A stretch of DNA of 64,000 nucleotides, from positions 1 to 64,000 of the forward strand of contig JAYFMW010000017.1 in NCBI GenBank assembly GCA_042408215.1, written 5' to 3'. The DNA is from Microcoleus sp. (GTDB lineage Bacteria; Cyanobacteriota; Cyanobacteriia; Cyanobacteriales; Microcoleaceae). Position numbers and translations under genes: made by a program. This document shows, in pieces, positions 1 through 48,352 of this stretch (within the stretch, counting starts at the first letter, position 1; each line of letters opens with the position of its first letter). The notes beneath the pieces are model-generated. The model did no database searches. It saw only the letters and a program-made list of their open reading frames with translations, and was not told where the DNA came from.

Positions 1-552
1 GCGGGATATGAAGTGGTGGAAGTTTTCAGGGAGACTGCCAGCGGTGCCAAATCCGATCGCCCGGAGCGCCAAAAAATTATGGCGGCAGCGCAGGCACGAA
101 AAGTTTCGGCGGTGCTGGTGACTGAGGCTAGTCGATGGAGCCGCAGCACGATCGACCTGCTGGGAACTTTGCAAAGCTTGAATGCTTGGGGCGTGTCGCT
201 GGTTACGCTGTCTGGAATAGGGTTAGATTTGAACACGCCGCAGGGCAAGTTGATGGCGGCGGTTATTTCGGCGATCGCTGAATTCGAGCGGGATTTAATC
301 CGGCAGCGGGTGAAGAGCGGGATGGCGGCGGCGAAGGCGAAGGGTCAGAAGTTTGGGCGGCCGCGAGTGTCGGAAAGTGCGATCGCCCTTGTTCACCAGT
401 TGAGGGCGCAAGGCAAAAGTTATTCGCAAATTGCTGAAATTTCTGGAATCAGTCGGACTAAGGTTTTTGAGTTGTGCCGCGCCATGAATGAATCACAGCT
501 ACGACCTGTACCGGCGACATTCCAGCGAGTAGGGCCGATCGCACTTCTTTAA
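1..552 (+). CDS. Serine recombinase/resolvase family protein, 5' end outside window
   Basis: ETASG...RPE, V-x-E-x-SRWSRS, TPQGKLM..I.AIAEFERDLI.QRV..G...AKAKG..FGRP motifs and a C-terminal HTH; the frame is open back to base 1. Confidence 0.9.
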   Translation, partial: AGYEVVEVFRETASGAKSDRPERQKIMAAAQARKVSAVLVTEASRWSRSTIDLLGTLQSLNAWGVSLVTLSGIGLDLNTPQGKLMAAVISAIAEFERDLIRQRVKSGMAAAKAKGQKFGRPRVSESAIALVHQLRAQGKSYSQIAEISGISRTKVFELCRAMNESQLRPVPATFQRVGPIALL

Positions 553-1393
553 GTCTCGCTTGTGCTATCTCAGAATCGATGTTGCCACCGGGAATGTGAA
601 CGTGCCGCATTCGGGAGCCGTCGCGATAAGAGAATCGGAAATATTCCCCGCTGCGGGCCGTGCCACGAGGCCGGTAAGTAGATATTGCTCGTGATACAGA
701 ATCATCCTCAGCAACCTCGACAATGTATTCTGTATCAGCAACCTCGACAGTGTATTCTGTATCAGCAACCTCGACAGTGTATTCTGTATCAGCAACCTCG
801 ACAGTGTATTCTGTATCAGCAACCTCGACAGTGTATTCTGTATCAGCAACCTCGACAGTGTATTCTGTATCAGCAACCTCGACAGTGTATTCTGTATCAG
901 CAACCTCGACAGTGTATTCTGTATCAGCAACCTCGACAGTGTATTCTGTATCAGCAACCTCGACAGTGTATTCTGTATCAGCAACCTCGACAGTGTATTC
1001 TGTATCAGCAACCTCGACAGTGTATTCTGTATCAGCAACCTCGACAGTGTATTCTGTATCAGCAACCTCGACAGTGTATTCTGTATCAGCAACCTCGACA
1101 GTGTATTCTGTATCAGCAAATGTAGAGGCTGGTGATACAGAATCAATTTCCGGCGGCGCGGGTGCGAGCTTGACTTCATCGGGATAGAGAAAATCCCACT
1201 GGTTGATGTGAGGGTTCCAAAATCGAAGGCGGCCGTCGATCGGATGAACTGCGTTCACTTTGAAAATTTCGCCGCGCTTCACCCAAGCAGCGATCGCCGG
1301 TTTCCTTCGCAGCTTCACCCAGTCGCCAGCTTTGTAAAGGCTGCCTACTTCGGCGGTCGCGGTGTCAAAAAGTGAAAGTTGAGCATTGACCAT
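458..1393 (-). CDS. Hypothetical protein with about 15 ADTEYTVEV repeats and a C-terminal HIPGGN-containing domain
   Basis: ATG start with GGAG upstream; non-repetitive flanks are open in the same frame. Confidence 0.7.
   Translation of the reverse strand: MVNAQLSLFDTATAEVGSLYKAGDWVKLRRKPAIAAWVKRGEIFKVNAVHPIDGRLRFWNPHINQWDFLYPDEVKLAPAPPEIDSVSPASTFADTEYTVEVADTEYTVEVADTEYTVEVADTEYTVEVADTEYTVEVADTEYTVEVADTEYTVEVADTEYTVEVADTEYTVEVADTEYTVEVADTEYTVEVADTEYTVEVADTEYTVEVADTEYTVEVADTEYIVEVAEDDSVSRAISTYRPRGTARSGEYFRFSYRDGSRMRHVHIPGGNIDSEIAQARLKEVRSALLAGMSPVQVVAVIHSWRGTTQKP
709..1118. repeat. 27-bp tandem repeat (CAGCAACCTCGACAGTGTATTCTGTAT), about 15 copies
   Basis: Near-perfect head-to-tail copies with no spacers. 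Confidence 0.97.
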
Positions 1394-1647
1394 ATCGGCA
1401 CTAACTCCTTTGTCAATCGATTTTAGATTTTAGATTTTAGATTTTAGATTTACTTCATCGACGTATTCTTTCAGATCGGGATATTTCATGATTGTTTGTC
1501 TAGCATTGGTAATTGGTAATTGGTAAGTGCTGATCTCTCCCGGCTGTCACTCCACTTTTTGGCAGGTGTCGCCAGTTTTGCAACTAATGCCTTAATGCAC
1601 TGCTACACATAAATGGGCTTCCATAGAAAGTCATTTATCTGTAGCAC

Positions 1648-1923
1648 TCATTTGTTGACGGCTTCTCTAAACTGCTTACCGGCCGAGAATGCCGGAACTA
1701 CCGCAGCGGGGATATCCATCTTCTCCCCGGTCTTAGGGTTGCGGCCTTCACGGGCCTTGCGCTCTTTCGCTTCAAAGGAGCCGAAACCTACCAGCGTTAC
1801 TTTCTCACCGTCGGCAACCGCTTGGGTGATGGAATTTATCAGAGCATCCAACAGAGCATTTGCAGCTTTCTTGGTGGTCTCAGCTTTGGTGGCGGCTAGT
1901 TCTACAAGTTCAGATTTGTTCAT
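1648..1923 (-). CDS. hup: HU family DNA-binding protein (element-borne copy)
   Basis: MNKSELV, VTLVGFGSF, REGRNPKTG, VPAFSAGK signatures. Confidence 0.95.
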   Translation of the reverse strand: MNKSELVELAATKAETTKKAANALLDALINSITQAVADGEKVTLVGFGSFEAKERKAREGRNPKTGEKMDIPAAVVPAFSAGKQFREAVNK

Positions 1924-1968
1924 AAGTGCGATCGGTTTCGGTAATTAGTCATTAGTCATTAGTAACGC

Positions 1969-2001
1969 AAAACCAGCCCCCGTAAGGAGTGCTGGCTTTT
2001 T
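1969..2001. terminator. Hairpin flanked by A/T tracts
   Basis: AAAACCAGC...GCTGGCTTTTT. Confidence 0.45.
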
Positions 2002-2158
2002 GGTTCAGTGGCGGTTTCCTCCTGTCGTTGTTAGATCTCTTGCTGCTGTTGCTGCACTTTGTTCCGCTGCATGTTTTGCTGATGCTTTCTGCGTTCAACC
2101 TCTGTTAATCTCCGTTGGAGCTCAACGATGAACTCCATTTGCACCTGCTTGCGATATC

Positions 2159-2371
2159 TCAACGTGGCTCAAGGATTCTCCCCAACTGCTTTTCTCGTCG
2201 ATAATGTCTCTCCGGGCTTGATATTTCCACTGCTAGCGTCTGAGCAACTCGTCCGAGCTTCTCTCCCAGCCGCTCCGCTTCTCTCGAGTGCCTCGCTCTC
2301 CGTCCGTCTAGTCGGACTTTGTCATCTTCCCCGTACTTCTGTTTCCTGACTTTGCATAGCTTTCGAGTCAT
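2159..2371 (-). CDS. Small basic protein, possibly a degenerate DNA-binding regulator
   Basis: ATG preceded by an AG-rich RBS; divergent from the 2523 operon. Confidence 0.35.
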   Translation of the reverse strand: MTRKLCKVRKQKYGEDDKVRLDGRRARHSREAERLGEKLGRVAQTLAVEISSPERHYRREKQLGRILEPR

Positions 2372-2394
2372 AACTTCTCTCTCTAAATAGATGA

Positions 2395-2439
2395 ACGTCT
2401 ATGAGATCTTGACAGTTATCTCATTAAGACGTCTATGAT
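2395..2439 (+). promoter_or_regulatory. Putative sigma70 promoter with operator-like repeats
   Basis: TTGACA 2409-2414 and TATGAT 2434-2439; ACGTCTATGA at 2395 and 2429; ATGAGAT/ATCTCAT inverted repeat around the -35. Confidence 0.4.
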
Positions 2440-2522
2440 GACTTCAATGTCTGTAATGTAAAAGACTGCACTGCATACCCCAAACATTGATGGGTGGGCA
2501 ACTCCCACCCTTTCCCTAACCT

Positions 2523-4436
2523 ATGTACACCCTAGAAAGCCTTCAACAGAAGAATCTCAAGGAACTCAAGGAAATCAGTCGGCAGCTCAACGTGCTCCCA
2601 TTGGGCGATCGACGGTGCCGCCAAAACTGGATTAATGTCCTCATCGGCACTCAGCCCCCCCTGCTGCAACTGCTGGAAGTTCCCCCCGGTGTCGAACCGG
2701 TTGCTGAGGCGAAACGCAAGCTAGAAGTTCAATCCCAGGAGCCGATCGAAGTTCAAGCCCAGGAGCCGATCGAAGTCGATCAAGTCCAGGAGCCGCCGAT
2801 CGAGTCCAAGTTTGGCCGCATCATTTATCCCAAACCGGCCGTTAAGCCGATCACACAAAATGCAGAAACTAGACCCCAACTCGACAGAACAGAAAGTGCT
2901 GATGTACATAACTGGCGCTCTCATCCCGCCGACTCAGTTCGAGATAGCAGCAGCGCTAAAGCTGAAGCACTGGGAAGCAAGGAAGGCGATCGGGTATTGG
3001 CGCTGTCGGGGAATAGTGAAGCAGTTCGAGGGGGAGTTTTACCCCGTCAGCCAATTGAACTAGCGGCCACATTCAATGACGAACAACCCCCGAAGCTGAA
3101 CGAATATTCCCCAACAGGGTTTGGGTGTCCGAAATGTGGTGCTGCTTACGGCTTGTACATCGGGAAAGACTGCTTGGGTATATCGGAGATTAAATGCTTG
3201 CACTGCGATTTCTCCGAAGGAACACTTGATTGTCCGAGATGTGGCGCTGCCCACGGCTTGTACACCACAAAGGACTACTTGGGTAGAGAGATAATTAAAT
3301 GCTTGCACTGCTGGTACTCCCGAAGAAAACACTACCCCGGCTCGATCTTACTTGAAGCCGAAGAGCCGCCGATCTATGTGCCAGATACGCAAGATGGGAT
3401 TGATTTACAGGATTCTGAGTTTCAAACCACCGAGCCGCCGATCGAGTCCAAGTTTGGCCGCATCATTTATCCCAAACCGGCCGTTAAGCCGATCACCCCA
3501 GCGACCGAAACTTCCCCCGGTGTCGAAAATTTCAAAGACGATCGACCGCCGAACCGTGGCGACGACAATGGCAGAGACAGACTGGAAGTTGAGCCAAAAT
3601 TGAGCCAAAGTGCGATCGTACCAGCGGTCAAAAATTCCCCCGGTGTGAGTCGCAAAACTTCAACAGCCCATCAACTTTTGGAGCTGTTCAAATCCTCGGC
3701 AGTCATTCTTGGGGATTCCCCCGCTGCCGAAACTGAGGCAGAAACGCTCGAAAGTGCGATCGGCTTAGCGGCCAAAAATCTCCTCGATGCTGAAGCCGAT
3801 CAGAATCCGATCTTGACCAACATCACCTTTTCTCCTGGCTTTCTCGCTCGCTATTCCCCGCCCCAGCCTGAGAACATCCACTATCAATCCGACGCTGACG
3901 GGCAACTGAGCCTGCTTGATTTTGAGGTGGAATCGGTAGACGAACCGCCAGACCCGGATGATTTTGAAACCCTCAATGCGTTCCGTGAGGCGATCGCACT
4001 TTGGGATGCTGAACACCCCGAACCGCTAGAAGTGTCTCTGAATTCGATGTCCGAGTGGGCCCCGTGTCCTGATGACTGGTACGAACCCGACATTTTGCTC
4101 GAACTGTCTGAAGTGTTGGAACTCTCACCGGCGATCGAAAGTTCCATCACTTGCAAATTCCTGATTCCTGTTTTTGACGCTTGGTGCGATCGCGCAAACC
4201 GACAAAACGACACCGATGAACCGCCCGACACAGGGATTTTCGCCCGCTTGCCGGGGCCCAAACCGCCCAAATTTCCTCCAATGGCGATCGCGTTGATCGA
4301 CACCGCCAAAAAGTGCTTTAACGCAAATCGGCATACTACACGCATTACAATTGCAGCCCAAGCTCACATTACTCGCATCGCCGCCGGCAGTAGCAGTAAG
4401 TCACCGCGATCGCCTCCGGGAGGTGATGCCATGTAG
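2523..4436 (+). CDS. Hypothetical protein: Rho-N-like N-terminal helix, two tandem CxxC...CxxC zinc ribbons, acidic/Pro-rich body
   Basis: LQQKNLKELKEISRQLNV; CPKC..CLHC and CPRC..CLHC; EPPDPDDF motif. Confidence 0.75.
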   Translation: MYTLESLQQKNLKELKEISRQLNVLPLGDRRCRQNWINVLIGTQPPLLQLLEVPPGVEPVAEAKRKLEVQSQEPIEVQAQEPIEVDQVQEPPIESKFGRIIYPKPAVKPITQNAETRPQLDRTESADVHNWRSHPADSVRDSSSAKAEALGSKEGDRVLALSGNSEAVRGGVLPRQPIELAATFNDEQPPKLNEYSPTGFGCPKCGAAYGLYIGKDCLGISEIKCLHCDFSEGTLDCPRCGAAHGLYTTKDYLGREIIKCLHCWYSRRKHYPGSILLEAEEPPIYVPDTQDGIDLQDSEFQTTEPPIESKFGRIIYPKPAVKPITPATETSPGVENFKDDRPPNRGDDNGRDRLEVEPKLSQSAIVPAVKNSPGVSRKTSTAHQLLELFKSSAVILGDSPAAETEAETLESAIGLAAKNLLDAEADQNPILTNITFSPGFLARYSPPQPENIHYQSDADGQLSLLDFEVESVDEPPDPDDFETLNAFREAIALWDAEHPEPLEVSLNSMSEWAPCPDDWYEPDILLELSEVLELSPAIESSITCKFLIPVFDAWCDRANRQNDTDEPPDTGIFARLPGPKPPKFPPMAIALIDTAKKCFNANRHTTRITIAAQAHITRIAAGSSSKSPRSPPGGDAM

Positions 4437-4602
4437 GATAAATTGCTTGCTTAAGGCGTTTGAACAACTTATCTCCCTTCTGAATCTGAACAGTGCGATC
4501 GTCCCTCGAACCGGTCGATCGCTTCCTCTACCAACCATCATCAAACGTATAAAGATCTATGACTTTTCTGAAAATTTCCCTTCCCGTTTACAAAAGAGAT
4601 AA

Positions 4603-4977
4603 ATGGGACACCTTGAGAAAGACGGCAGAATTGAAGTTAGCAGCGACGTAGATAATCTTTCGGAAGGTTATCAATCTTTAAGACTTGAAATTGAAGAACT
4701 GATTTCAGAACTGAAAGCTGAAAGCCGTTTAGCAGAAGAGGCGTACACATTAGAATGCCAGATCGAAAAAAAAGCTTCCGAGCTAAAAAGACTTCTCAAA
4801 GATATCGAGAGAGCCACAGCACATTATGAAAGCTTGAAATTCTTTTTAATGAATTTGGGCATCGCTCCAACTTCGTCTAGGCTGACATTTGACAAGCAGT
4901 TCTTGCCACAGGACGCATCGCTATCTCAAGTAGAAGTTGTGCCGCTTGAGTCGAGATACCCCGACGACGTTATTTAA
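4603..4977 (+). CDS. Hypothetical coiled-coil protein
   Basis: 124-aa ORF with heptad pattern, in operon-like array. Confidence 0.6.
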   Translation: MGHLEKDGRIEVSSDVDNLSEGYQSLRLEIEELISELKAESRLAEEAYTLECQIEKKASELKRLLKDIERATAHYESLKFFLMNLGIAPTSSRLTFDKQFLPQDASLSQVEVVPLESRYPDDVI

Positions 4978-5035
4978 TCATCAACAAAGAAGCGATTTTC
5001 GGTGACTGAGAATCGCTTCCTACCAACAACTAATT

Positions 5036-5858
5036 ATGGAAATAACCGCCGATTTCAACGACATTTTTTGGAAACCCCCAGAAACAGAATTCCAACCGCT
5101 CCTAGACTTTGAATCCGAAGTTTCCGACGAAGCGCCGTACAACGACATTGCCGTACTCACCAAGAGCCTCAAGCTTAGCTTCCTTGACTACGTGCGACAA
5201 GGAATCATGCTCCACACCGTTCGCCGCTACCGCCTTTATAAACAGCAGTACAAAGATTTTGCCGAATACTGCAAACTTGCTATAGGGCGATCGCACTTCT
5301 ACTGCAAAAAGATTATCCAAGCCGCTCAGGTTTGTTTGGAACTCATCAAGTCCAAATTTGCAACTTCTGCCCAACATCGGTAGCGCAAGCACTCCCAACT
5401 GGTGAAGTTTGCAAAAATTGACGCTTACGGTCAGCAACCAATTAGCGGACAAGTGGCAAACTGTTCTCGATGGATTCCCAGACCACCAAATCACAGCGGC
5501 CAAAATCCAAGAAACTCTTGATGAGAACCCAGAGGACAGAGCCAAGCAAGTCCGCATTGGTGGCAAAGCTTATCAAATACTGGAACAAAAAGCAGCAGCA
5601 GCGGGCATGACAGTCTCTAAGTATCTCGAAATGCTCATCGGCGGCACCGAACCGCCTGACGAAGAACCGCCCGACGATGAATACTGCGGGGAAGGAGAGG
5701 AGTTAACACCAGAAAAAGAGGAAATCTTGGACGATTTAGAGAAGTCTTGGGCCAAAACCAAACCCGCGTCAGATTTCGGCAAAAAGAAACCCTCAAGAAG
5801 CCATAAAAAAGCTATCAACCCCACCATTAGATCGGGCGAAGCGTCCGATTCATCCTAG
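5036..5858 (+). pseudogene. Hypothetical mobile-element protein split by frameshifts near 5360-5435
   Basis: ORFs 5036-5383 and 5409-5858 join into one plausible protein (LYKQQYKDFAEYC...SVAQALP-LVKFAK...KWQTV...ITAAKI) if several single bases are removed. Confidence 0.55.
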
Positions 5859-5874
5859 TTAGTTTTTTAAAACC

Positions 5875-6381
5875 ATGTCTCATAATACTTTCACCTATAG
5901 GCATTCTGACTTACCCGTGTTTCGCCCTGAAATCAAAGCAGAAATTATTGCCTTGGGTCTTCATGCCGATGACTTGATTCTCAAGAGCCACGGCAACTAC
6001 CGGGAGCTTGAAGAGTTGGCAGAAACTCTCGACAACTGTCTGAATACTTGCGAGCTAAACCTTAACTCGATCCGAATAATCCCCGACGACAGCCCACAAC
6101 CCGCAACTGTCAGCTTGCGAGATTTGCCAATTGAACAAAAACAACTTATTTATTCTTGTTCAAGAACCAATTCGATTTTGCTGAATTTGCTGAGTGAACT
6201 TCTTAATCAACCTTGCGAACAAATAGCCCGCGACATAGCAGAACAAGTCGCTTTGCGTCAAGAACCAGTAGATACAAGCGAAATAGAAAATTTCATCGAC
6301 AACGTAATGCTGCCGCTCGTTCAACAAACCGAAAAAAATCCTTCCGCTACAGGTCATTACGTTTTTAAACGAATCGACTAA
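5875..6381 (+). CDS. Hypothetical protein
   Basis: 168-aa ORF followed by a terminator. Confidence 0.65.
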   Translation: MSHNTFTYRHSDLPVFRPEIKAEIIALGLHADDLILKSHGNYRELEELAETLDNCLNTCELNLNSIRIIPDDSPQPATVSLRDLPIEQKQLIYSCSRTNSILLNLLSELLNQPCEQIARDIAEQVALRQEPVDTSEIENFIDNVMLPLVQQTEKNPSATGHYVFKRID

Positions 6382-6386
6382 GCGCA

Positions 6387-6425
6387 AAAAAAAAGCGGTT
6401 GAATCCCGACTTCAACCGCTTAATT
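6387..6425. terminator. Intrinsic terminator-like hairpin
   Basis: A-tract, AAAGCGGTTGAA-loop-TTCAACCGCTTT. Confidence 0.7.
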
Positions 6426-6473
6426 CCAAGCTGTCTCGACTATTTTTTACACAATGGCATCTATTAATTTACC

Positions 6474-6773
6474 ATGCACCAACCTCAAAATCGACAGATT
6501 GCTGATTTAGTGCAATCCGCCAAAGAACAATATGGCGATTTTAGCGACGCAAAAAAACGAGAAATCTTTGAAATCATCAAAGAAGCCAAATCGCGCGGCT
6601 TGTTGCGAAAGCAGCCTCACGACAAATGTTTGAGCGATTATGTCAACGCCGCCAACCACCTACTGAGAAGCTATCCAACTGAAGAATTCACAGCAGCGTT
6701 GAATCGAAATCTTGATTACGTATATGTGTACGTTGCCCTTGTCGGCACCAACTCCATCCTCACAACCGCCTGA
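6474..6773 (+). CDS. Hypothetical protein directly upstream of the bridge-like RNA
   Basis: 99-aa ATG ORF. Confidence 0.6.
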   Translation: MHQPQNRQIADLVQSAKEQYGDFSDAKKREIFEIIKEAKSRGLLRKQPHDKCLSDYVNAANHLLRSYPTEEFTAALNRNLDYVYVYVALVGTNSILTTA

Positions 6774-7020
6774 CGAGGGCCGCCTATGGAATCAGCGGCT
6801 GAAACTCCCCTTATTAAGGGGGGTAGCGGATCGATTCCAACCCGAACCGCCACAGCATCGCGGCCGACTTAAGGCTTTCATAATGAAACAAGCTCTATAG
6901 GGCTTTTAGCTTTTCATAAGCTTGGTCGGGTTTGCGCGCTGTAGCCCTGCGTGCTTTAAGAGTGAATTAGGCTCATTTTATTGCGGCCTTTGGGTGATTC
7001 ATAAGCACTTTGTTCCAGGG
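6774..7020 (+). ncRNA. Putative IS110 bridge RNA (5' hairpins, target-binding loop 6852-6942, donor-binding loop 6945-7020)
   Basis: Two hand-folded stem / internal-loop / hairpin modules sharing GCTTT...TGAA and TTCATAAGC; loop strands match the element end and flank at 8254-8268. Confidence 0.8.
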
Positions 7021-7041
7021 AGTAAACCTCACCCTATAAAC

Positions 7042-8262
7042 ATGAAAATACTAGGCGTTGATATTAGCAAAGCCTCCATTTCTGCGTGCCTGCTTTTAGA
7101 AAAAGCCAACGCAAACGCCGATGCGCGCGATACTTTGTACGAAACCAAATTTCATAAATTTTATGCAGATGCCGCTGGAATTTGCGGACTGCTCGATCTG
7201 ATTGGTGATGGCGAGGCGATCGCAATAATGGAGCCGACCGGCATCAATTATCAGAAATTGTGGGGAACTCAACTTGCCAGAGCCGGCGTTGAAGTGCGGC
7301 TTGTGGGACACGCAGAATTAAGATCTTTTCGCCACCACCACCTTGGTTTGCCTGATAAAGACGACGACGCCGATGCTCTAGCACTGGCGCTGTACGGCTG
7401 GGAATATCTCGATTTGCCTCGCAGGTTTTTGCAGATTCGAGAAGGAGCGATCGTAAAAATCCGCGAGTTCGCTTTGCGGTTGGCACACCTGAACAGGGTG
7501 CAAAGTCCCATAATTAACCGGGCGAGGCAAGATTTAGCTTGGCAATTCCCCGAAATTGCGCTGATCCGCTCAGTGCGTTACGGCGAAAGAGTACCTTTGC
7601 TGTGGGGTTGGCTTTCGGGCGAAGGACCAAGCAAAAAATACGATCGCCTTTATGCCGAATCGATCGGCTTAGGCCTCACCGAATCTGTACGCCAGCACGC
7701 CGCCAGACTTTGCAGCTTGCAGCGCGAAGAAATGGTAATTGAACAAGAACTTTTTAAATTGCTTGCCGCTCCGCAGTTTGCCCGCTACCGAAAAGTTTTC
7801 GTCCGGTTTGGATTTGGACAACGAGTCGAAGCGCTGCTGCTAAGTCAAATTTACCCGCTGCAAAATTATCTTGCAGCCGACGGCACGCCAGAAGTAAAAA
7901 TCGCCAAAGGTCGCAAATCCGGCAAGCCAACCAAGCGATACCTTTCTCTGCGGCGGTTCATGAAAGCTTTAGGGTGCGCGCCCTCGCAGGAAAGTAGCGG
8001 TGATTTGCAAAAGTCTAAAGTTATGGGAGGTTCCGCGCTATGTCGGAAAGCGCTTTGGCAATGGATTTTTACCAGAATCGAGCCCAAGAATCGCCGGCTA
8101 TCAAACGACATAGGCTGCTACCTTGGAGAAATTTTAGATTCTGAAAAAGCCAGCGGTCGGCCGGTGAAGCTTGCCCGATCGCGCGTCGCGGCCAAAGCCG
8201 TAAAAATGCTCTTTAAAGAGCTCGTCAAGGCGCTCGCTCAGGATAAAAAAATGTTAGAGTGA
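7042..8262 (+). CDS. IS110-family (DEDD RuvC + Tnp serine) recombinase, 406 aa
   Basis: MKILGVDISK, MEPTG, KDDDADA, LGCAPSQESSG, GG..LCRKALW; ATG 7042 preferred over TTG 6922. Confidence 0.9.
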   Translation: MKILGVDISKASISACLLLEKANANADARDTLYETKFHKFYADAAGICGLLDLIGDGEAIAIMEPTGINYQKLWGTQLARAGVEVRLVGHAELRSFRHHHLGLPDKDDDADALALALYGWEYLDLPRRFLQIREGAIVKIREFALRLAHLNRVQSPIINRARQDLAWQFPEIALIRSVRYGERVPLLWGWLSGEGPSKKYDRLYAESIGLGLTESVRQHAARLCSLQREEMVIEQELFKLLAAPQFARYRKVFVRFGFGQRVEALLLSQIYPLQNYLAADGTPEVKIAKGRKSGKPTKRYLSLRRFMKALGCAPSQESSGDLQKSKVMGGSALCRKALWQWIFTRIEPKNRRLSNDIGCYLGEILDSEKASGRPVKLARSRVAAKAVKMLFKELVKALAQDKKMLE

Positions 8263-9078
8263 AAATCTTTGCGTTGCCTTGCTATTTTTTGATGATGTTT
8301 AGCAAGGCGTTTAACAGCTTTGGGTCTGCGATTACTGCCTTTCTTTTTGCGAGAAACAGCCTTATTTCGCAGCTTTTTATCAATCTCAGCTTTTCTAGCA
8401 AACTGAGGGATAGATACGGTTTCACCATCACTGGTAATCAAGAAATCCTTCAGTCCCATATCAATACCGACAACATTATCAAGATTGACATCAGGACTAA
8501 TTGTAGGAACCGTTACATCTTGCAATGTCAGCACCACATACCAGCCATCAGCGTTCTTGACGATCTGAGCAGTTTTAATTTTGAATCCATCGGGAATAGG
8601 GCGGTGCAAGATAATCTTCACATCGCCAATCTTAGATAGAGTTGATGCGATTACCTTTGATGCAGTCTTGCGACATCTGAGTATAGGTAAAACTGTGATA
8701 TCTACCACGACCTTTAAATCTTGGCTTACCAGAGCGTTTACCTGCTTTGTCAGCACTGATATAACGGTCAAAAGCTTTCTTGACTCTAGCAATGCAATCC
8801 TGAAGCACTTGAGAATGAATGTTTTTGTACTCAGGAAATAGCTTTTTGGTATTGAGTAGATCTCGCTTTTGCCAGTAATAATCAGGCTGTTCAACTATGG
8901 GAGCAATGCTACATAATACGAGAGAGCATGAATTAACAGGACTACGAGTAGACTCATACCAGTTAAATCTCTCTGCCAGCCTATAGTTGTACTGCATACG
9001 CAACAAGTCAAGCCACTCATCGAATTGATGAGCTTGGGCTTTGTTAGGGCGTAATTTGTACTTGTAGGCTGTTATCAT
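8259..9078 (-). pseudogene. tnpB: IS200/IS605 TnpB, frameshifted near 8640 and truncated after RKDFH
   Basis: AYKYKLRPN HTH, SQVLQD, GKPRFK, GIDMGL (RuvC-I), KKKGSNR; RuvC-II, Zn finger and RuvC-III absent. Confidence 0.92.
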
Positions 9079-9351
9079 GCCATAATTGTACCATAAGATA
9101 GATGGTATATAGTAATGAAAAAAATAACTTTTCATCTGGCAGATCAAGAGTTTGATTTGCTTGAATCCTACTGTGAGCAGACCGAAAGAGGTAAGACTGA
9201 AGTGTTGAGAGAATTGATACGCAGTTTAAAGATTAGCTCTAAAAGCAAAGATAATTGTTAATCAACGGGGTATCGAACCCCGTTGATTAACACGCTTACA
9301 TCCCGTCACTCAAGGTCGTACCGTTAGAGTGCGGGGCTTTCGCTTAGTAGC
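8260..9351 (-). mobile_element. Left half of an IS200/IS605-family (RHH + tnpB) element
   Basis: tnpB, divergent RHH gene, hairpins at 9258-9290 and 9302-9335 resembling a left end; outer boundary approximate. Confidence 0.7.
9115..9261 (+). CDS. Ribbon-helix-helix (CopG-like) protein divergent from tnpB, 48 aa
   Basis: MKKITFHLADQEFDLLESYCEQTERGKTEVLRELIRSL...; not in the ORF track. Confidence 0.8.
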   Translation: MKKITFHLADQEFDLLESYCEQTERGKTEVLRELIRSLKISSKSKDNC

Positions 9352-9531
9352 TAACGATTCCTGGTACACTGACTCTAAAAATCCTGGCCCCGTCGCCGTT
9401 TTAGTCCTAGATTCTAGAATAATTCTAAGTTTTCAACCTAGTTTTGTCGTTTCAGCCGTTGAGTACGCTAAGTTTACATGAGTTTGCTTACTAGACAGTT
9501 TCTAGATTTCATCCAGGAATTCCGGTGAGGC

Positions 9532-9570
9532 TTGACAAAAACACAAATTAACCCTAAATTTAGGGTTAAT
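9532..9570 (+). promoter_or_regulatory. Promoter with a perfect 24-bp palindrome over the -10
   Basis: TTGACA 9532-9537, 17-bp spacer, TAAATT; ATTAACCCTAAATTTAGGGTTAAT 9547-9570. Confidence 0.55.
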
Positions 9571-9912
9571 CATTAAGTGATTAAGCGGATAGTTACAGGA
9601 AGTTTTGCATCGCAGTACGCTTTAAGCGGTGCGACTGAGCCGATGCACCTCAATCGCCGCTCCAATCGCTCTATAGGCTAACTGTTCTACCTGTTCGCCC
9701 AATTGTCTCATTCTTCTTTCTTCTTCCTTCGCGTCCTACCCTACGGGAACGGCTTCGCCGAACGCGTCTTCGTGGTTCATTCGTTCTTTCCTCTCAATGT
9801 GTCGATCGCACAAATATCATATCCCCTCTTCGCTACTGAGACAATAATCCCGATCGCACCCCAGCCGTTCTAAAATCAAAGGTAATTCACCTAAATTTGA
9901 CATAGGCACCGC

Positions 9913-11118
9913 ATGGATACTAAAGCTTTTAAGCGATCGCTACAACAGTCGGCAAATTACCACCGCAAGGGTTTCGGGCACGAAGCTGAGGTTACGGAGG
10001 TGATGAAGACGGCTTATCAAAGCAGTCTGATTCAGCAAATTCGGGACAATAATTACAGACTGGAACGCAACGGCGTCACGATTCGGCTGGCGGAGTCTTT
10101 TGGTTTTTGCTGGGGTGTGGAACGCGCCGTAGCTATTGCTTACGAAACTCGCCAGCATTTCCCAACGGAACGGATTTGGATTACGAATGAGATTATTCAC
10201 AATCCCTCAGTAAACCAGCATTTGCGGGATATGGAAGTTGGTTTTATTGCGGTTGATTCGGGGCAGAAAGATTTTTCGGTTGTCGATAGTGGCGATGTGG
10301 TAATTTTACCTGCTTTTGGGGCGAGCGTGCAAGAAATGCAGTTGCTCAACGATAAAGGCTGCAAGATTGTTGATACAACTTGTCCTTGGGTTTCTAAGGT
10401 TTGGAATTCTGTTGAGAAGCACAAAAAGAAGGATTATACTTCGATTATTCACGGTCAGTACAAGCATGAAGAAACTGTTGCGACGAGTTCTTTTGCTGAT
10501 AAATATTTGATTGTACTGAATTTGCAGCAGGCTGAATATGTCAGCAATTATATCATATATGGGGGCGATCGCAATGAGTTTATGGCGAAGTTTAGCAATG
10601 CTTATTCGGCTGGTTTTGACCCAGATGTGGATTTAGAAAGAATTGGCATTGCTAACCAAACTACTATGCTCAAAACTGAGACGGAGCAGATGGGCAAGTT
10701 GTTTGAAAAGACGATGATGCGGAAGTTCGGCCCGGCTCAGTTGAACGAACATTTCTTGAGTTTTAATACTATTTGCGATGCGACTCAAGAGCGGCAAGAT
10801 GCGATGCTGAGTTTGGTGGAGGAAAAGTTGGATTTGATGGTGGTAATTGGGGGTTTTAATTCTTCTAATACGACGCATTTGCAAGAGATTGCGATCGACA
10901 ACACTATTCCGTCTTATCACATTGACTGTGCGGAACGCATTTTACCAGGAAATCGGCTCGAACACAAGCCTTTGGGGGGTGATTTAGTCATCGCACAAAA
11001 CTGGCTACCGTCGGGCAAAATTGTGGTGGGGGTGACTTCTGGTGCTTCGACGCCGGATCAGGTTGTGGAGGATGCGATCGAGCGCATTTTTGCCGTAAAA
11101 GCAGCGCTTGTCCTTTAA
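9913..11118 (+). CDS. ispH: 4-hydroxy-3-methylbut-2-enyl diphosphate reductase
   Basis: [43 protein letters not shown]. Confidence 0.97.
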
Positions 11119-11258: not shown

Positions 11259-12470
11259 CTAAAGCTGAACTACGCAGCTCTCTATCCCATTGCACAAGGC
11301 ATTTGGGATTGCTTTTCGCATAATATTGTAAGACCCATTAACATCGGCATTAATTAATTGACCGCAGGATGTTTTGTACAATCCTCTCTTAATTCGTTGA
11401 CCACTAAATGTGACATCCATGTCACCAATACTCCCGTATACAGGAATTGGATCTAAATTCAGAAAACTGGATTGAGAAGTATATGATTCTTCCTGCACCA
11501 TCACTCTTATTCCAACCAATACAGCCTTATATTCCAACATCTCAATTAATCGAGCATGAGGAACTGTTACGAAGTTCTGATTAGTTTTTTTTCCCAAATT
11601 AATCTCGTTTTTCCATTGCACATTTTTCCCTATTACCAGAGTCCCAATCTTTTCTGAACTTAAAAGATTGATGATGGAACGACTGGCCTGGTGTAAGTAA
11701 TTCTCGATTTTTTGGTTTCTACAACGAGTCAAGCGCTGAATCCTACGCGATGTTTTGCGACTCTCTTTCAATTGAGATTGTAGATGTGCTTTACGCTTGT
11801 TGTAAAACTGATTAATTGATTTTAATGGTCGTCCGTTAATCAGTAAAGGGACAAATCCCGGCTGATTTGAAGTTAACGCCACTAAATTATTTAGCCCTAA
11901 ATCGATACTAGCTACTAATTGTTTCTGATTTTCATCAATGGTGGACTCCGGCTCATCATAAATTACCTCAATTACATAACAATCACACTTAGGAACTAAC
12001 CTAACTTGACAAATTTGCTCTGGTTTTACCTTGGTCTTAATCAAGATGTTAGTCCCGGACAGATGGATAATTCCTTTCTTTAGTTGCTTGGTACTAATCG
12101 CCTGAATCGTATAAACGAGAATGTTTCGCCCTTTGACTTTATCTTTGTACTTGGGTAACTTTGGGCTACCAGTAAATTTTGTTGGCTCAATATTGTAAGC
12201 TTTAACGGCTTCAAAAAAAGATTTCCAATTCTTGTCCAATATCATCAAGATTTGTTGACTTACCTTGGCTGGTAAGTCCTTGTATGCTTGATGAGATTTC
12301 ATCAAACAGTTCATTTCGTTGTAATTGATATAACCCCATCCATAGACAAAACTCTGACGAATAACGTAGTTAGCGACGTTGTAGAGATTTTTGGATTTAA
12401 AGGCTAATCCGTCAATTTCAACAAAACGATTCTCGGTGGATTTAATGATGTGTCTCTCTGCTAGTTGCAT
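11259..12470 (-). CDS. tnpB: IS200/IS605 TnpB RNA-guided nuclease, apparently intact, rearranged RuvC-II type
   Basis: SIDLGLNNL, LVIGKN, QEESYTS, INADVNGSYNI; no tnpA adjacent. Confidence 0.93.
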   Translation of the reverse strand: MQLAERHIIKSTENRFVEIDGLAFKSKNLYNVANYVIRQSFVYGWGYINYNEMNCLMKSHQAYKDLPAKVSQQILMILDKNWKSFFEAVKAYNIEPTKFTGSPKLPKYKDKVKGRNILVYTIQAISTKQLKKGIIHLSGTNILIKTKVKPEQICQVRLVPKCDCYVIEVIYDEPESTIDENQKQLVASIDLGLNNLVALTSNQPGFVPLLINGRPLKSINQFYNKRKAHLQSQLKESRKTSRRIQRLTRCRNQKIENYLHQASRSIINLLSSEKIGTLVIGKNVQWKNEINLGKKTNQNFVTVPHARLIEMLEYKAVLVGIRVMVQEESYTSQSSFLNLDPIPVYGSIGDMDVTFSGQRIKRGLYKTSCGQLINADVNGSYNIMRKAIPNALCNGIESCVVQL

Positions 12471-22714: not shown

Positions 22715-23692
22715 ATGGAGTCTCTAAAAGCGAAGTTAGTTCGCAAATGGTTACAATTAGCGAATCAGAGGCACGAGCAAAAAATACAGAAAAAAGTCAC
22801 CAGTTCTAAAACTTCTGAACCAAGCTCAATTTACACAAGCAGCCCCAAAATTTCACTCATTGTGCAATTTTTCAATAAAAAACCTAATATTAAGAGTATC
22901 ATCAATGCACTAAGGTTAACATCGGCTGAAGAACTGATCGTCATTGATGATGGCTCTAGTGATGGTTCTTACGAAGAGTGGATGAAATACCTGGATAGGC
23001 GCAATGACTTTCTACTGCGCTGCAATGACTTATTCGAGGTAAGAACCTACGATCGAGCGATCGGGATGGCGAAAGGCGAGTTTGTTTGCTTACTGCAAGA
23101 TGATGATATACCACCCTATAATAATACTTGGGTAGAGCACGCACTCTCTTTGTTTGAAGCTTTACCTAGTTTACTAATATTAGGTGGCAGAGAAGGCTTG
23201 GACTTTTTGACCCCAGATCCAGTGAATCCAAATGAAGAGCCTACCTATAAAAGAATTGGAGACATAATTACTCGACCAGGACTTTTTAAGAAACGGATTT
23301 ATGAAAGGCCACACTACATAGAACCTCAGTCTGGTCTACCATTTATGTTTGCTACATCTGTTAACAGGGCTCCCACATTTCTGAGGAGAAAGCCTTTCCT
23401 GGAACTAGGAGGAATCAATCAAGATTATGCTCCGTTTCAGTTTGACGATGACGAGGCGAGCGTGAGAGCTTGGTTGGCTGGATATCAAGTAGGTTTATAT
23501 CCCTGCCCATTTGTGAGAAATGTGGGCGATGGTGGCATGAGAATCTTTAATAGCGAAAGAGTGAAAAAACAATCGGTTATTAATGCGAAAAAGTTTTATG
23601 AGGCTTATGCTCCTATTATTGCCAGTGGCGAACTCCAAAATATGATAGATAGTGCCAATCAGCAATTAATCAATGCTCCCAACAAAAACTAA
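22715..23692 (+). CDS. Glycosyltransferase family 2
   Basis: IDDGSSDGS, LLQDDD. Confidence 0.88.
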   Translation: MESLKAKLVRKWLQLANQRHEQKIQKKVTSSKTSEPSSIYTSSPKISLIVQFFNKKPNIKSIINALRLTSAEELIVIDDGSSDGSYEEWMKYLDRRNDFLLRCNDLFEVRTYDRAIGMAKGEFVCLLQDDDIPPYNNTWVEHALSLFEALPSLLILGGREGLDFLTPDPVNPNEEPTYKRIGDIITRPGLFKKRIYERPHYIEPQSGLPFMFATSVNRAPTFLRRKPFLELGGINQDYAPFQFDDDEASVRAWLAGYQVGLYPCPFVRNVGDGGMRIFNSERVKKQSVINAKKFYEAYAPIIASGELQNMIDSANQQLINAPNKN

Positions 23693-48099: not shown

Positions 48100-48352
48100 G
48101 GGCAGTATATTCACAGTCAGTAACTCAGCCCTAAAGGGACTGAGCTTGTAAGAGAAATCTCTCGCGAGCTATACTGACCAGCTATCGTCTTAACTGACTA
48201 CGTTATTTGAGTCACGACACTCCTTGAATGCGACGCCAGTTTTGGGCTCTGTCGCTAGTGGTTAAACAGTCTTAAAGTCACGCTCGACAGTGCTGCTAGC
48301 CTAAAAAGCTTTTATAACATTGGCGAGGCGAACATTACTCTCGCAAGGGAGA
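48100..48352 (+). ncRNA. HEARO/IscB omega-RNA with 5' guide drawn from the flank
   Basis: TGACCAG, CTACGTT, GACAC..GAATGC..GCCAGT..GCTCTGTCG, TTAAACAG, ACAGTG, AACATTGGCGAGGCGAACATTAC blocks recalled as typical of this scaffold; ends approximate. Confidence 0.8.

Follow-up and report, generated by a model that had tools for sequence, protein, structure and literature searches.

A gene for an IS110-family recombinase in a cyanobacterium of the genus Microcoleus raises the question of how much DNA such an enzyme mobilizes: a compact insertion sequence, or the long gene-bearing stretch that lies to its left. The window, meaning the whole stretch of DNA analyzed here, is the first 64 kilobases (kb; 64,000 nucleotides) of contig C17 (JAYFMW010000017.1) in an assembly of 7.36 Mb and 30 contigs (GCA_042408215.1). 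In the IS110 group, a noncoding RNA encoded upstream of the recombinase, the bridge RNA, has a target loop of variable sequence and a donor loop of constant sequence. In each of the two, the left arm of the corresponding DNA is present in sense and the right arm as the reverse complement, arranged around a shared core, and the core is present on both sides of the element once insertion has occurred. The usual form of the family is compact, about 1.2–1.6 kb, with the RNA beside the left end, and the units of the IS621/IS110 group that Durrant et al. are said to have described in 2024 reportedly measure about 1.3 kb.

We conclude, at a probability of roughly 0.85, that window positions 1–8263 cover roughly the right two-thirds of a large integrative element, of a kind present across filamentous cyanobacteria, that the bridge recombinase is its only integration machinery, and that its guide RNA would be cut by a putative hammerhead ribozyme. 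This reading draws on junctions of both types, on matches between guides and flanks, on empty sites, and on the conservation of a ribozyme core, all of which are directly visible in the genomes compared.

At E<=0.001 the recombinase has 906 relatives. The related loci analyzed are the best 80 of 197 related stretches among genome contigs. Statistics on junctions and guides come from 68 loci with readable guides, for which 332–4000 bases of upstream DNA were examined per locus, and nine loci were extended upstream by up to 20 kb each. Contigs of the Microcoleus assembly are labeled C, related loci L or E (E for those extended upstream), and genomes G.

An integrative element bounded by a GAA core

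The features on which the argument depends at the right end of the element are the following.

About 6826–7035, plus strand: bridge RNA, recognized by a two-loop consensus fold, covariation, and guide-flank matches; 3′ end approximate
6879–6887 and 6908–6915, plus strand: target loop of the bridge RNA, with left guide CATAAT-GAA and right guide AGCTT-TTC
6958–6966 and 6992–7000, plus strand: donor loop of the bridge RNA, AAGAGT-GAA and GGGTGA-TTC
7042–8262, plus strand: IS110-family (bridge) recombinase, an intact open reading frame (ORF) of 406 amino acids (aa), NCBIfam NF051857
8254–8268, plus strand: right junction, comprising the right end TTAGAGT (8254–8260), the core GAA (8261–8263), and the right target AATCT (8264–8268)
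8264–9354, minus strand: 5′ part of an IS605-family tnpB element, with frameshifted ORFs 9147–8632 and 8894–8238 (Pfam PF12323 and PF01385)

The recombinase matches NF051857 (“IS110 family transposase”) at 509.9 bits against a cutoff of 180, with residues 2–396 of 406 aligned. Recombinases of the family have an N-terminal DEDD (RuvC-like) and a C-terminal Tnp domain, and the two Pfam IS110 domains here fall slightly below their cutoffs (PF01548, 26.6 against 29; PF02371, 19.5 against 21.3), and NF033542 gives 64 bits against a cutoff of 140. By tblastn, 7042–8262 is the sole full copy in its own genome, and genomes G002, G003, and G004 likewise hold one full-length copy each.

The 280 bases ahead of the recombinase start codon align well across relatives. 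In the RNAalifold consensus fold of 49 sequences, aligned plainly with MAFFT, the RNA begins with its own 5′ hairpin, followed by a long covarying stem around one internal loop and a second stem around another, and 21 of the 47 pairs show double changes. The first, or target, loop reads GGGCTTT, six variable letters, and GAAAC on one side, and GGCTTT(T/C), five variable letters, and TTC on the other. The second, or donor, loop is invariant among relatives (AAGAGT-GAA and GGGTGA-TTC), and its left guide, AAGAGU-GAA, compares with an element end of TAGAGT-GAA. The first letter of the left target guide is frequently C where the target has T, and this letter may lie outside the guide proper. A permissive Rfam scan of 6400–8500 and 6735–6880 returned no bridge RNA family. 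At gathering thresholds, Rfam recognized across the whole window only a HEARO RNA (RF02033) at 48116–48338 on the plus strand, at 130.5 bits (gathering score 83).

Right junctions in the relatives take the form (C/T)TAGAGT-GAA and then, in reverse complement, the five-letter guide of the same element. The match to the guide is exact at 46 of 68 loci and has at most one mismatch at 56, and GAA is assigned as the crossover core because (C/T)TAGAGT-GAA precedes the reverse complement of each element's own guide segment. At several loci, including L002, L011, L012, L014, L016, L051, and L060, the right end lies 270–1650 bases past the recombinase stop codon without overlapping it, so that extra DNA or a small ORF stands between the gene and the end.

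In the window, the minus-strand tnpB (9147 down to 8264) is interrupted exactly at the right end of the IS110 element and constitutes its right flank, outside the element. An intact tnpB gene of 432 aa resides at C3:135531–136829, and window 8254–9354 is 97% identical to C3:135936–137035. The breakpoint in this intact copy reads ...GATTTATAAT-GAA-AATCTTTGCG..., or TATAAT-GAA-AATCT in short, where the guides in the window predict CATAAT-GAA-AAGCT. The initial annotation had pointed to a large gene-bearing stretch to the left of the RNA in place of the 3′ half of tnpB. Positions 1–6773 are indeed cargo, and blastn located the missing half nowhere else in the 30-contig assembly. A second tnpB gene, intact and encoding 403 aa with OrfB_IS605 and Cas12f1-like TNB domains, lies at window 11259–12470 on the minus strand, just past a 401-aa ORF at 9913–11118.

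Within the upstream DNA examined, a guide-predicted left junction was present at 0 of 68 loci. Upstream extension revealed one in seven of nine loci, 11.7–20.3 kb upstream of the recombinase start, and the contigs of the other two, E042 and E079, ended before any left junction appeared. The left-end motif is the left target followed by GAA-TCCCCA, with CCCGAT in place of TCCCCA in one element.

E012: TATAAG-GAA-TCCCCAG, exact guide match
E003: TAGATT-GAA-TCCCCAC, guide CAGATT
E002: TAAAAC-GAA-TCCCCAC, guide CAAAAC
E016: contig starts at GAATCCCCAG; the left flank is visible in L126 as TATAAG-GAA-TCCCCAGAAATAATATG
E038 (Nostocales): TGCTCA-GAA-TCCCCAC, exact guide match
E076 (Nostocales): TACTAT-GAA-TCCCCAG, exact guide match
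E025 (Nostocales): GTTAGT-GAA-CCCGAT, exact guide match

The seven elements measure about 21.8, 17.2, 18.0, 19.0, 13.0, 14.8, and 14.7 kb, a range of 13–22 kb. The initial annotation had predicted a left end of the form TG-AATCA and reported that it does not occur directly upstream of the RNA. The absence of a junction at that position stands, but the motif does not: the core is GAA rather than TG, and the true left end is GAA-TCCCCA.

Comparison with strains that lack the insertion, a check proposed with the same annotation, succeeded for two of the seven elements. For E003, 9 of 9 loci in other Microcoleus genomes are empty and read ...TAGATT-GAA-ACCAAAAACC... (with fuller flanks, ...GGGAAAATATCTAGATT-GAA-ACCAAAAACCTT...). 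For E012, 10 of 11 such loci are empty, reading ...TATAAG-GAA-GTCCGATG... (more fully, ...CCAAATCTATAAG-GAA-GTCCGATG...), and the eleventh is occupied. These empty sites are exactly the targets predicted by the guides, each with a single GAA, and therefore the whole 17–18 kb represents one insertion made through the bridge mechanism. Two-sided junctions and empty sites together thus identify the bridge recombinase as the integrase of a 13–22 kb element, in agreement with the earlier proposal that it acts as the terminal integrase of a multi-kilobase unit. The target shared by E012 and E016 lies inside locally duplicated sequence, in that E012 2361–2933 resembles 22789–23361 at about 84–89% (flanks L084 and L012).

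We propose that the element integrates as a whole unit, with the module of recombinase gene (7042–8262) and RNA at its extreme right end. The target loop would read five or six letters, GAA, and five further letters, and the donor loop would read the joined ends TAGAGT-GAA-TCCCCA, such that crossover at GAA leaves a GAA on both sides. A circular intermediate would carry the predicted junction TTAGAGT-GAA-TCCCCAGC (TTAGAGT-GAA-TCCCCAG).

A hammerhead motif ahead of the bridge RNA

More than 10 kb separate the bridge RNA from the left end, and the RNA therefore cannot depend on a promoter re-formed at the circle junction; its internal position and independence of such a promoter had been anticipated by the initial annotation. 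Directly upstream of the RNA, and overlapping the last cargo gene, is a motif with the organization of a type-I hammerhead ribozyme.

6766–6829, plus strand: type-I hammerhead ribozyme motif, predicted cut 6825/6826, directly 5′ of the bridge RNA
6766–6769 and 6826–6829: stem I strands CCGC and GCGG
6770–6776: hammerhead positions C3 to A9, CUGACGA
6777–6800: stem II hairpin, followed by GAAA at 6801–6804
6805–6823: stem III hairpin, followed by U6824 and A6825
6474–6773, plus strand: p99, the last cargo ORF, whose TGA stop codon (6771–6773) supplies U4-G5-A6 of the hammerhead core

Sequence conservation on the left begins at AACCGCCTGA (window 6764). This position was considered as an element end and rejected, as it is the start of the hammerhead. 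Similarly, TGGAATCA at 6787–6794, which resembles the TG-AATCA motif of the initial annotation, had been taken for the left end of the element with a TG core; it proved to be the stem II loop, and the hairpin that flanks it covaries with the element.

A strict and a looser pattern were searched for over the 80 loci, the looser set containing 56 distinct sequences. The hammerhead layout is found 270–310 bases ahead of the start codon at 54 of the 80 loci with the strict pattern and at 60 with the looser one. Core letters C3, U4, G5, and A6, G8 and A9, G12, A13, and A14, and the A15.1-U16.1 pair are each kept in 47–49 of the 49 aligned sequences. The positions conserved to this degree are exactly those of the hammerhead core, with N7 and H17 as its variable positions, and H17 is C in 46 of the 56 distinct sequences and A in the other 10, but never G. 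Each pair of stem III is canonical in 48–56 of 56, and pairs 3–7 occur as four to seven pair types, as expected of covariation. Stem II covaries as well.

Given this arrangement, the bridge RNA would form part of a transcript of the co-oriented cargo genes upstream, or of one that starts before p99, and the hammerhead would then cut between 6825 and 6826 and yield the 5′ end of the bridge RNA. A ribozyme directly 5′ of an internal guide RNA would explain how that RNA acquires its 5′ end, and from the sequence we infer that the motif at 6766–6829 self-cleaves to leave G6826 as the first nucleotide. A scan of 2300–8400 for promoters and terminators gave counts at or below the shuffled expectation, with one weak promoter-like site at 6446–6475, before p99. 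In one metatranscriptome run, a fraction of 0.65 of the sampled words of 6300–8300 is present as contigs, which do not show strand or ends and could be DNA.

The stem II loop at window 6787–6796 reads UGGAAUCAGC here and UGACUCACC in Nostocales. It resembles the donor right arm as predicted without a bulge (GAA-UCACC) and is therefore the complement of the right donor guide that the transcript also carries, which may reflect either chance or intramolecular pairing.

The element in its own genome

Contig C17 starts at window position 1 and thus provides nothing upstream. A search for the left end elsewhere in the assembly found ATAATGAATCCCCA at a single place, C11:86623–86636, 3.4 kb from the end of that contig. 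The junction there, at C11:86628, reads TATAAT-GAA-TCCCCAG, with the core at 86628–86630 and element DNA from 86631. The first gene inside the C11 end (142 aa) has about 66% protein identity to the first gene of the elements of all four Microcoleus relatives, and C17:1–8262 is colinear with the right halves of these elements. From the single occurrence of ATAATGAATCCCCA, the first-gene homology, and the colinearity, it follows that the element consists of C11:86631–90031, a gap, and C17:1–8260. The middle that corresponds to the gap is about 5–6 kb in the relatives, where it holds three large ORFs and a tail-fibre-like gene. The left junction sought since the initial annotation was therefore found, but its flanks do not fit one simple insertion in this genome, as discussed below.

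A second element of the same kind, rearranged and decayed, lies at C3:444,200–457,300 of the same genome. It retains homologues of p168, p637, the tandem-repeat protein (cargo proteins described below), and left and middle genes at 37–67% identity, as well as a distant IS110-like C-terminal fragment (26% identity, in a 247-aa ORF) directly after an intact-looking tnpB of 375 aa. In the window a tnpB gene was cut by the element; at the C3 locus the recombinase gene appears to have been cut by a tnpB.

Evidence to the contrary and rival explanations

Several observations weigh against the interpretation given above, the first group of which concerns the ribozyme. No Rfam hammerhead model reports the window site at E<=10, and a search of the whole genome with RF00163 did not include it. 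Stem I is short, with four pairs in 30 of 54 loci and two pairs in eight. The core deviates in 9 of the 56 distinct sequences of the looser set, position 10.1 is U rather than G in some copies, and the register of stem II shifts in some Microcoleus copies. These points favor the alternative that the conserved 60 bases look like a hammerhead but do not cleave, being instead a structural domain at the 5′ end of the RNA or a sequence with a protein-binding or terminator-like role. We regard this as the less likely reading, since the invariant letters are exactly those of the hammerhead core, N7 and H17 alone vary within it without H17 ever being G, and the three helices occur in type-I order with a covarying stem III. 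The RF00163 model spans only 45 positions, and the hairpins here are long; a weak match to RF02276 was obtained in one relative, L018, at 11.4 bits.

Two further points concern the recombination machinery. On the right donor arm, the guide predicts GAA-TCACCC and the ends read GAA-TCCCCA, so that agreement needs one bulged RNA base. In addition, there is a second recombinase aboard. In Microcoleus it is an invertase-type serine resolvase, and the equivalent position in Nostoc elements holds a tyrosine recombinase of 193 aa.

The remaining difficulties arise in the genome of the window itself. The left and right ends of the element fall on separate contigs, the middle is unassembled, and the ends of C11, C17, and the other contigs do not overlap. 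The left flank is DNA downstream of a phosphoketolase gene and not the 3′ half of tnpB. At the left-flank site, the 97%-identical genome G013 reads ...GGATCTATAAT followed directly by TGATTAAATG... (in short, CTATAAT and then TGATTAAATG), with neither a GAA core nor a match to the right target, and the continuation of this G013 site is absent from the genome studied here. On the other side, relatives resemble the DNA upstream of the 401-aa ORF as far as window 9638 and no further. The two flanking genes are on separate large contigs in G011 and G012, and the present arrangement therefore needs a second event.

We infer that a later rearrangement put another site in the place of the tnpB 3′ half. 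A canonical first insertion into tnpB, with both target arms matching, would have been followed by an event that fused the left end to a site matching the left arm only (CTATAAT) and deleted the 3′ half of tnpB. In the spacer downstream of the phosphoketolase gene is a repeat of about 80–110 bases (L087 about 10041–10150, equivalent to C11 about 86,040–86,150). It recurs dozens of times in this genome, and also throughout the genus, with 80–95% identity and looks like a small dispersed repeat.

Large IS110 loci have been described in a recent preprint (Hu, Xie, Yang, Rubin, bioRxiv 10.64898/2026.08.14.744561, August 2026). According to its accessible text, such loci reach about 100 kb, their additions form a continuum and are mostly plasmid-derived DNA and resistance genes, and their boundaries are half-matches, with no whole-unit mobility above about 20 kb. 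Recombination at half-matches of the kind reported there may explain the odd left flank of the window, which resembles a half-match to the left target only. One could extend this idea to the entire element and propose that it accreted step by step, through half-site recombination at an IS110 boundary, giving a real unit that is immobile as a whole and has a functional recombinase end only. That portion of the preprint lends the proposal some weight, as does cargo that differs wholly between Microcoleus and Nostocales and partly within Microcoleus. Accretion nevertheless appears improbable, because seven elements match their own guides on both sides, two have exact empty sites with a single GAA, and elements with a common p99-type backbone occupy at least five different target sites. 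The use of so many sites by one backbone argues for relocation of whole units with retargeted guides.

The weakest rival, a compact IS110 of about 1.5 kb (roughly 6764–8263) inserted in tnpB beside DNA that arrived or was rearranged separately and has no relation to the recombinase, can claim that DNA similarity to many relatives starts at window 6764–6800, that DNA-level similarity among three copies in a single Microcoleus genome is confined to about 1.5 kb, and that the left side lacks the tnpB 3′ half, but it is very hard to sustain when the 6764 boundary is that of the hammerhead, no predicted left junction lies near it at any of 68 loci, seemingly compact loci have homologous cargo genes upstream, and left junctions and empty sites delimit units of 13–22 kb. 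Compact copies of about 6770–8261 with unrelated upstream flanks, which the initial annotation had regarded as decisive against a large element, were looked for and not found, in that none of the 68 loci has the predicted left junction within the 332–4000 upstream bases examined.

Cargo genes

Window 1–6773 is a single-copy stretch in the genome and encodes a serine resolvase, a variable-number tandem repeat (VNTR) protein, an HU protein, a protein of 637 aa that contains CxxC pairs, and five small ORFs. Apart from p99, these genes are arranged as follows.

1–552, plus strand: serine resolvase/DNA invertase, 5′ end lost at the contig start (Pfam PF00239, E 1.2e-31; PHROG_125, E 8e-40)
458–1393, minus strand: VNTR protein of 311 aa with about 15 tandem 9-aa units
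1648–1923, minus strand: HU-type DNA-binding protein (Pfam PF00216, E 6.5e-32), conserved in the elements of relatives
2523–6381, plus strand: co-oriented ORFs p637 (CxxC pairs), p124, p115, p149, and p168

Resolvase homologues occur at the same place in relatives (E003_el 8830–9621 and E012_el 8959–9438). The VNTR gene contains a perfect 27-base repeat at about 708–1119, in about 15 copies encoding ADTEYTVEV, and the copy number varies in relatives. Homologues of the N- and C-terminal parts of its product are present in L079, L065, and L061 and in E003, E012, and E016.

Five Microcoleus loci are colinear with window 2480–6800. Homologues of p637 through p168 are colinear upstream of the recombinase in L002, L003, L004, L012, and L016, and p99 homologues with 58–68% identity and the same endpoint are present in these same five. 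In L010, L011, L014, L017, L065, and L079 the p637–p168 homologues are found in different orders, and loci that seem compact at the DNA level carry protein homologues of p637, p124, p115, p149, and p168, again in other orders. Between Microcoleus and Nostocales elements, the recombinase module is the only part shared by tblastx.

The initial annotation had called the cargo plasmid-like or similar to that of an integrative and conjugative element, a description that the genes recognized do not establish. No capsid, portal, terminase, relaxase, type IV secretion or conjugation, or replication gene was recognized with Pfam, PHROGs, and NCBIfam in the window, the C11 end, E003, E038, and E076. The p149 protein has a weak match to NikA/MobA-like ribbon-helix-helix proteins, and p637, p124, p115, p149, and p168 gave no family match beyond weak ones to PF21983 and NF041264. 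There are faint phage-like hints, such as the tail-fibre-like domains recognized in E003, within a protein of 448 aa (E 4e-15), and in E076, within one of 823 aa (E 5e-12).

The recombinase has no relative in IMG/VR and matches only two records in a plasmid collection, at 58% and 50% identity. A 576-aa cargo protein found no match in a phage collection, and two cargo proteins returned nothing usable from the ESM Atlas. A possible virus-related origin of these elements can be offered as a lead only.

Relationship to known systems

These elements have in common with the IS621/IS110 group an IS110-family recombinase, an upstream two-loop RNA, the scheme by which the arms are read, and a core on both sides. 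They differ from IS621 in the unit moved, which is 13–22 kb and not a compact form with the RNA at the left end, in their three-letter GAA core, in the distance of more than 10 kb between RNA and left end, in the hammerhead motif ahead of the RNA, and in a recombinase that belongs to a separate NCBIfam model, NF051857.

The expanded IS110 loci of the preprint, as its accessible text presents them, are similarly far above 1.5 kb, bounded by comparison of occupied with empty sites, and matched at their flanks by target guides. In contrast, here the whole clade is large, with typically one full-length copy per genome, a partly conserved backbone, and two-sided matches in elements of up to 21.8 kb. 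The text of the preprint does not mention cyanobacteria, Microcoleus, or Nostoc, and its supplement may contain such loci.

Temperate phages, satellites, and integrative elements with tyrosine or serine integrases resemble the present elements in size (13–22 kb), in the use of a specific site with a short bounding repeat, and in typically having one full-length copy per genome. A small invertase or resolvase, HU, and a tail-fibre-like protein are also shared. The difference is that the attachment site here is set by the guide letters of an RNA and differs between relatives.

Like type-I hammerheads (Rfam RF00163, clan CL00010), the motif follows the order stem I, CUGANGA, stem II, GAAA, stem III, UH, stem I, with the invariant letters in place and C or A at H17. 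It departs from the Rfam representatives in having stem II and stem III hairpins of 15–24 bases and in scoring below every Rfam hammerhead threshold. Searches combining hammerhead with IS110, and ribozyme with bridge RNA and processing, yielded among the literature reached no paper that links a hammerhead to a bridge RNA, and one preprint containing both words treats them apart. A hammerhead directly 5′ of a bridge RNA and overlapping a stop codon was likewise not found in the published literature searched.

What is new, given that cargo-bearing IS110 loci have already been reported (10.64898/2026.08.14.744561, in the text accessible), is a conserved clade of large elements with two-sided matches and a candidate ribozyme-processed guide. 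We lean slightly toward the broader view that the genes and guides compared here represent an old lineage in filamentous cyanobacteria, of 13–22 kb and typically one full copy per genome, possibly related to viruses, which would use a bridge recombinase as its integrase and free the guide from a long transcript by means of a hammerhead.

Implications for bridge recombinases and guide RNA maturation

Bridge recombinases are under development for large programmed DNA insertion, and natural elements reveal how the enzyme behaves unaided. If the interpretation is correct, these cyanobacterial elements are a natural example of whole-unit, retargetable insertion of about 20 kb, and a natural counterpart of the ribozyme-flanked guide cassettes made by engineers. 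Between relatives the guides have been redirected to different sites, and the backbone has stayed the same. The clade also provides a clean data set of dozens of guide-target pairs around a GAA core from which to derive the recognition rules of a divergent IS110 branch. Should the hammerhead cleave, a self-cleaving ribozyme would be naturally coupled to a bridge RNA, for the first time in the literature searched, and this would show that a guide RNA can mature from a long transcript without a promoter of its own by means of a compact part of about 60 bases.

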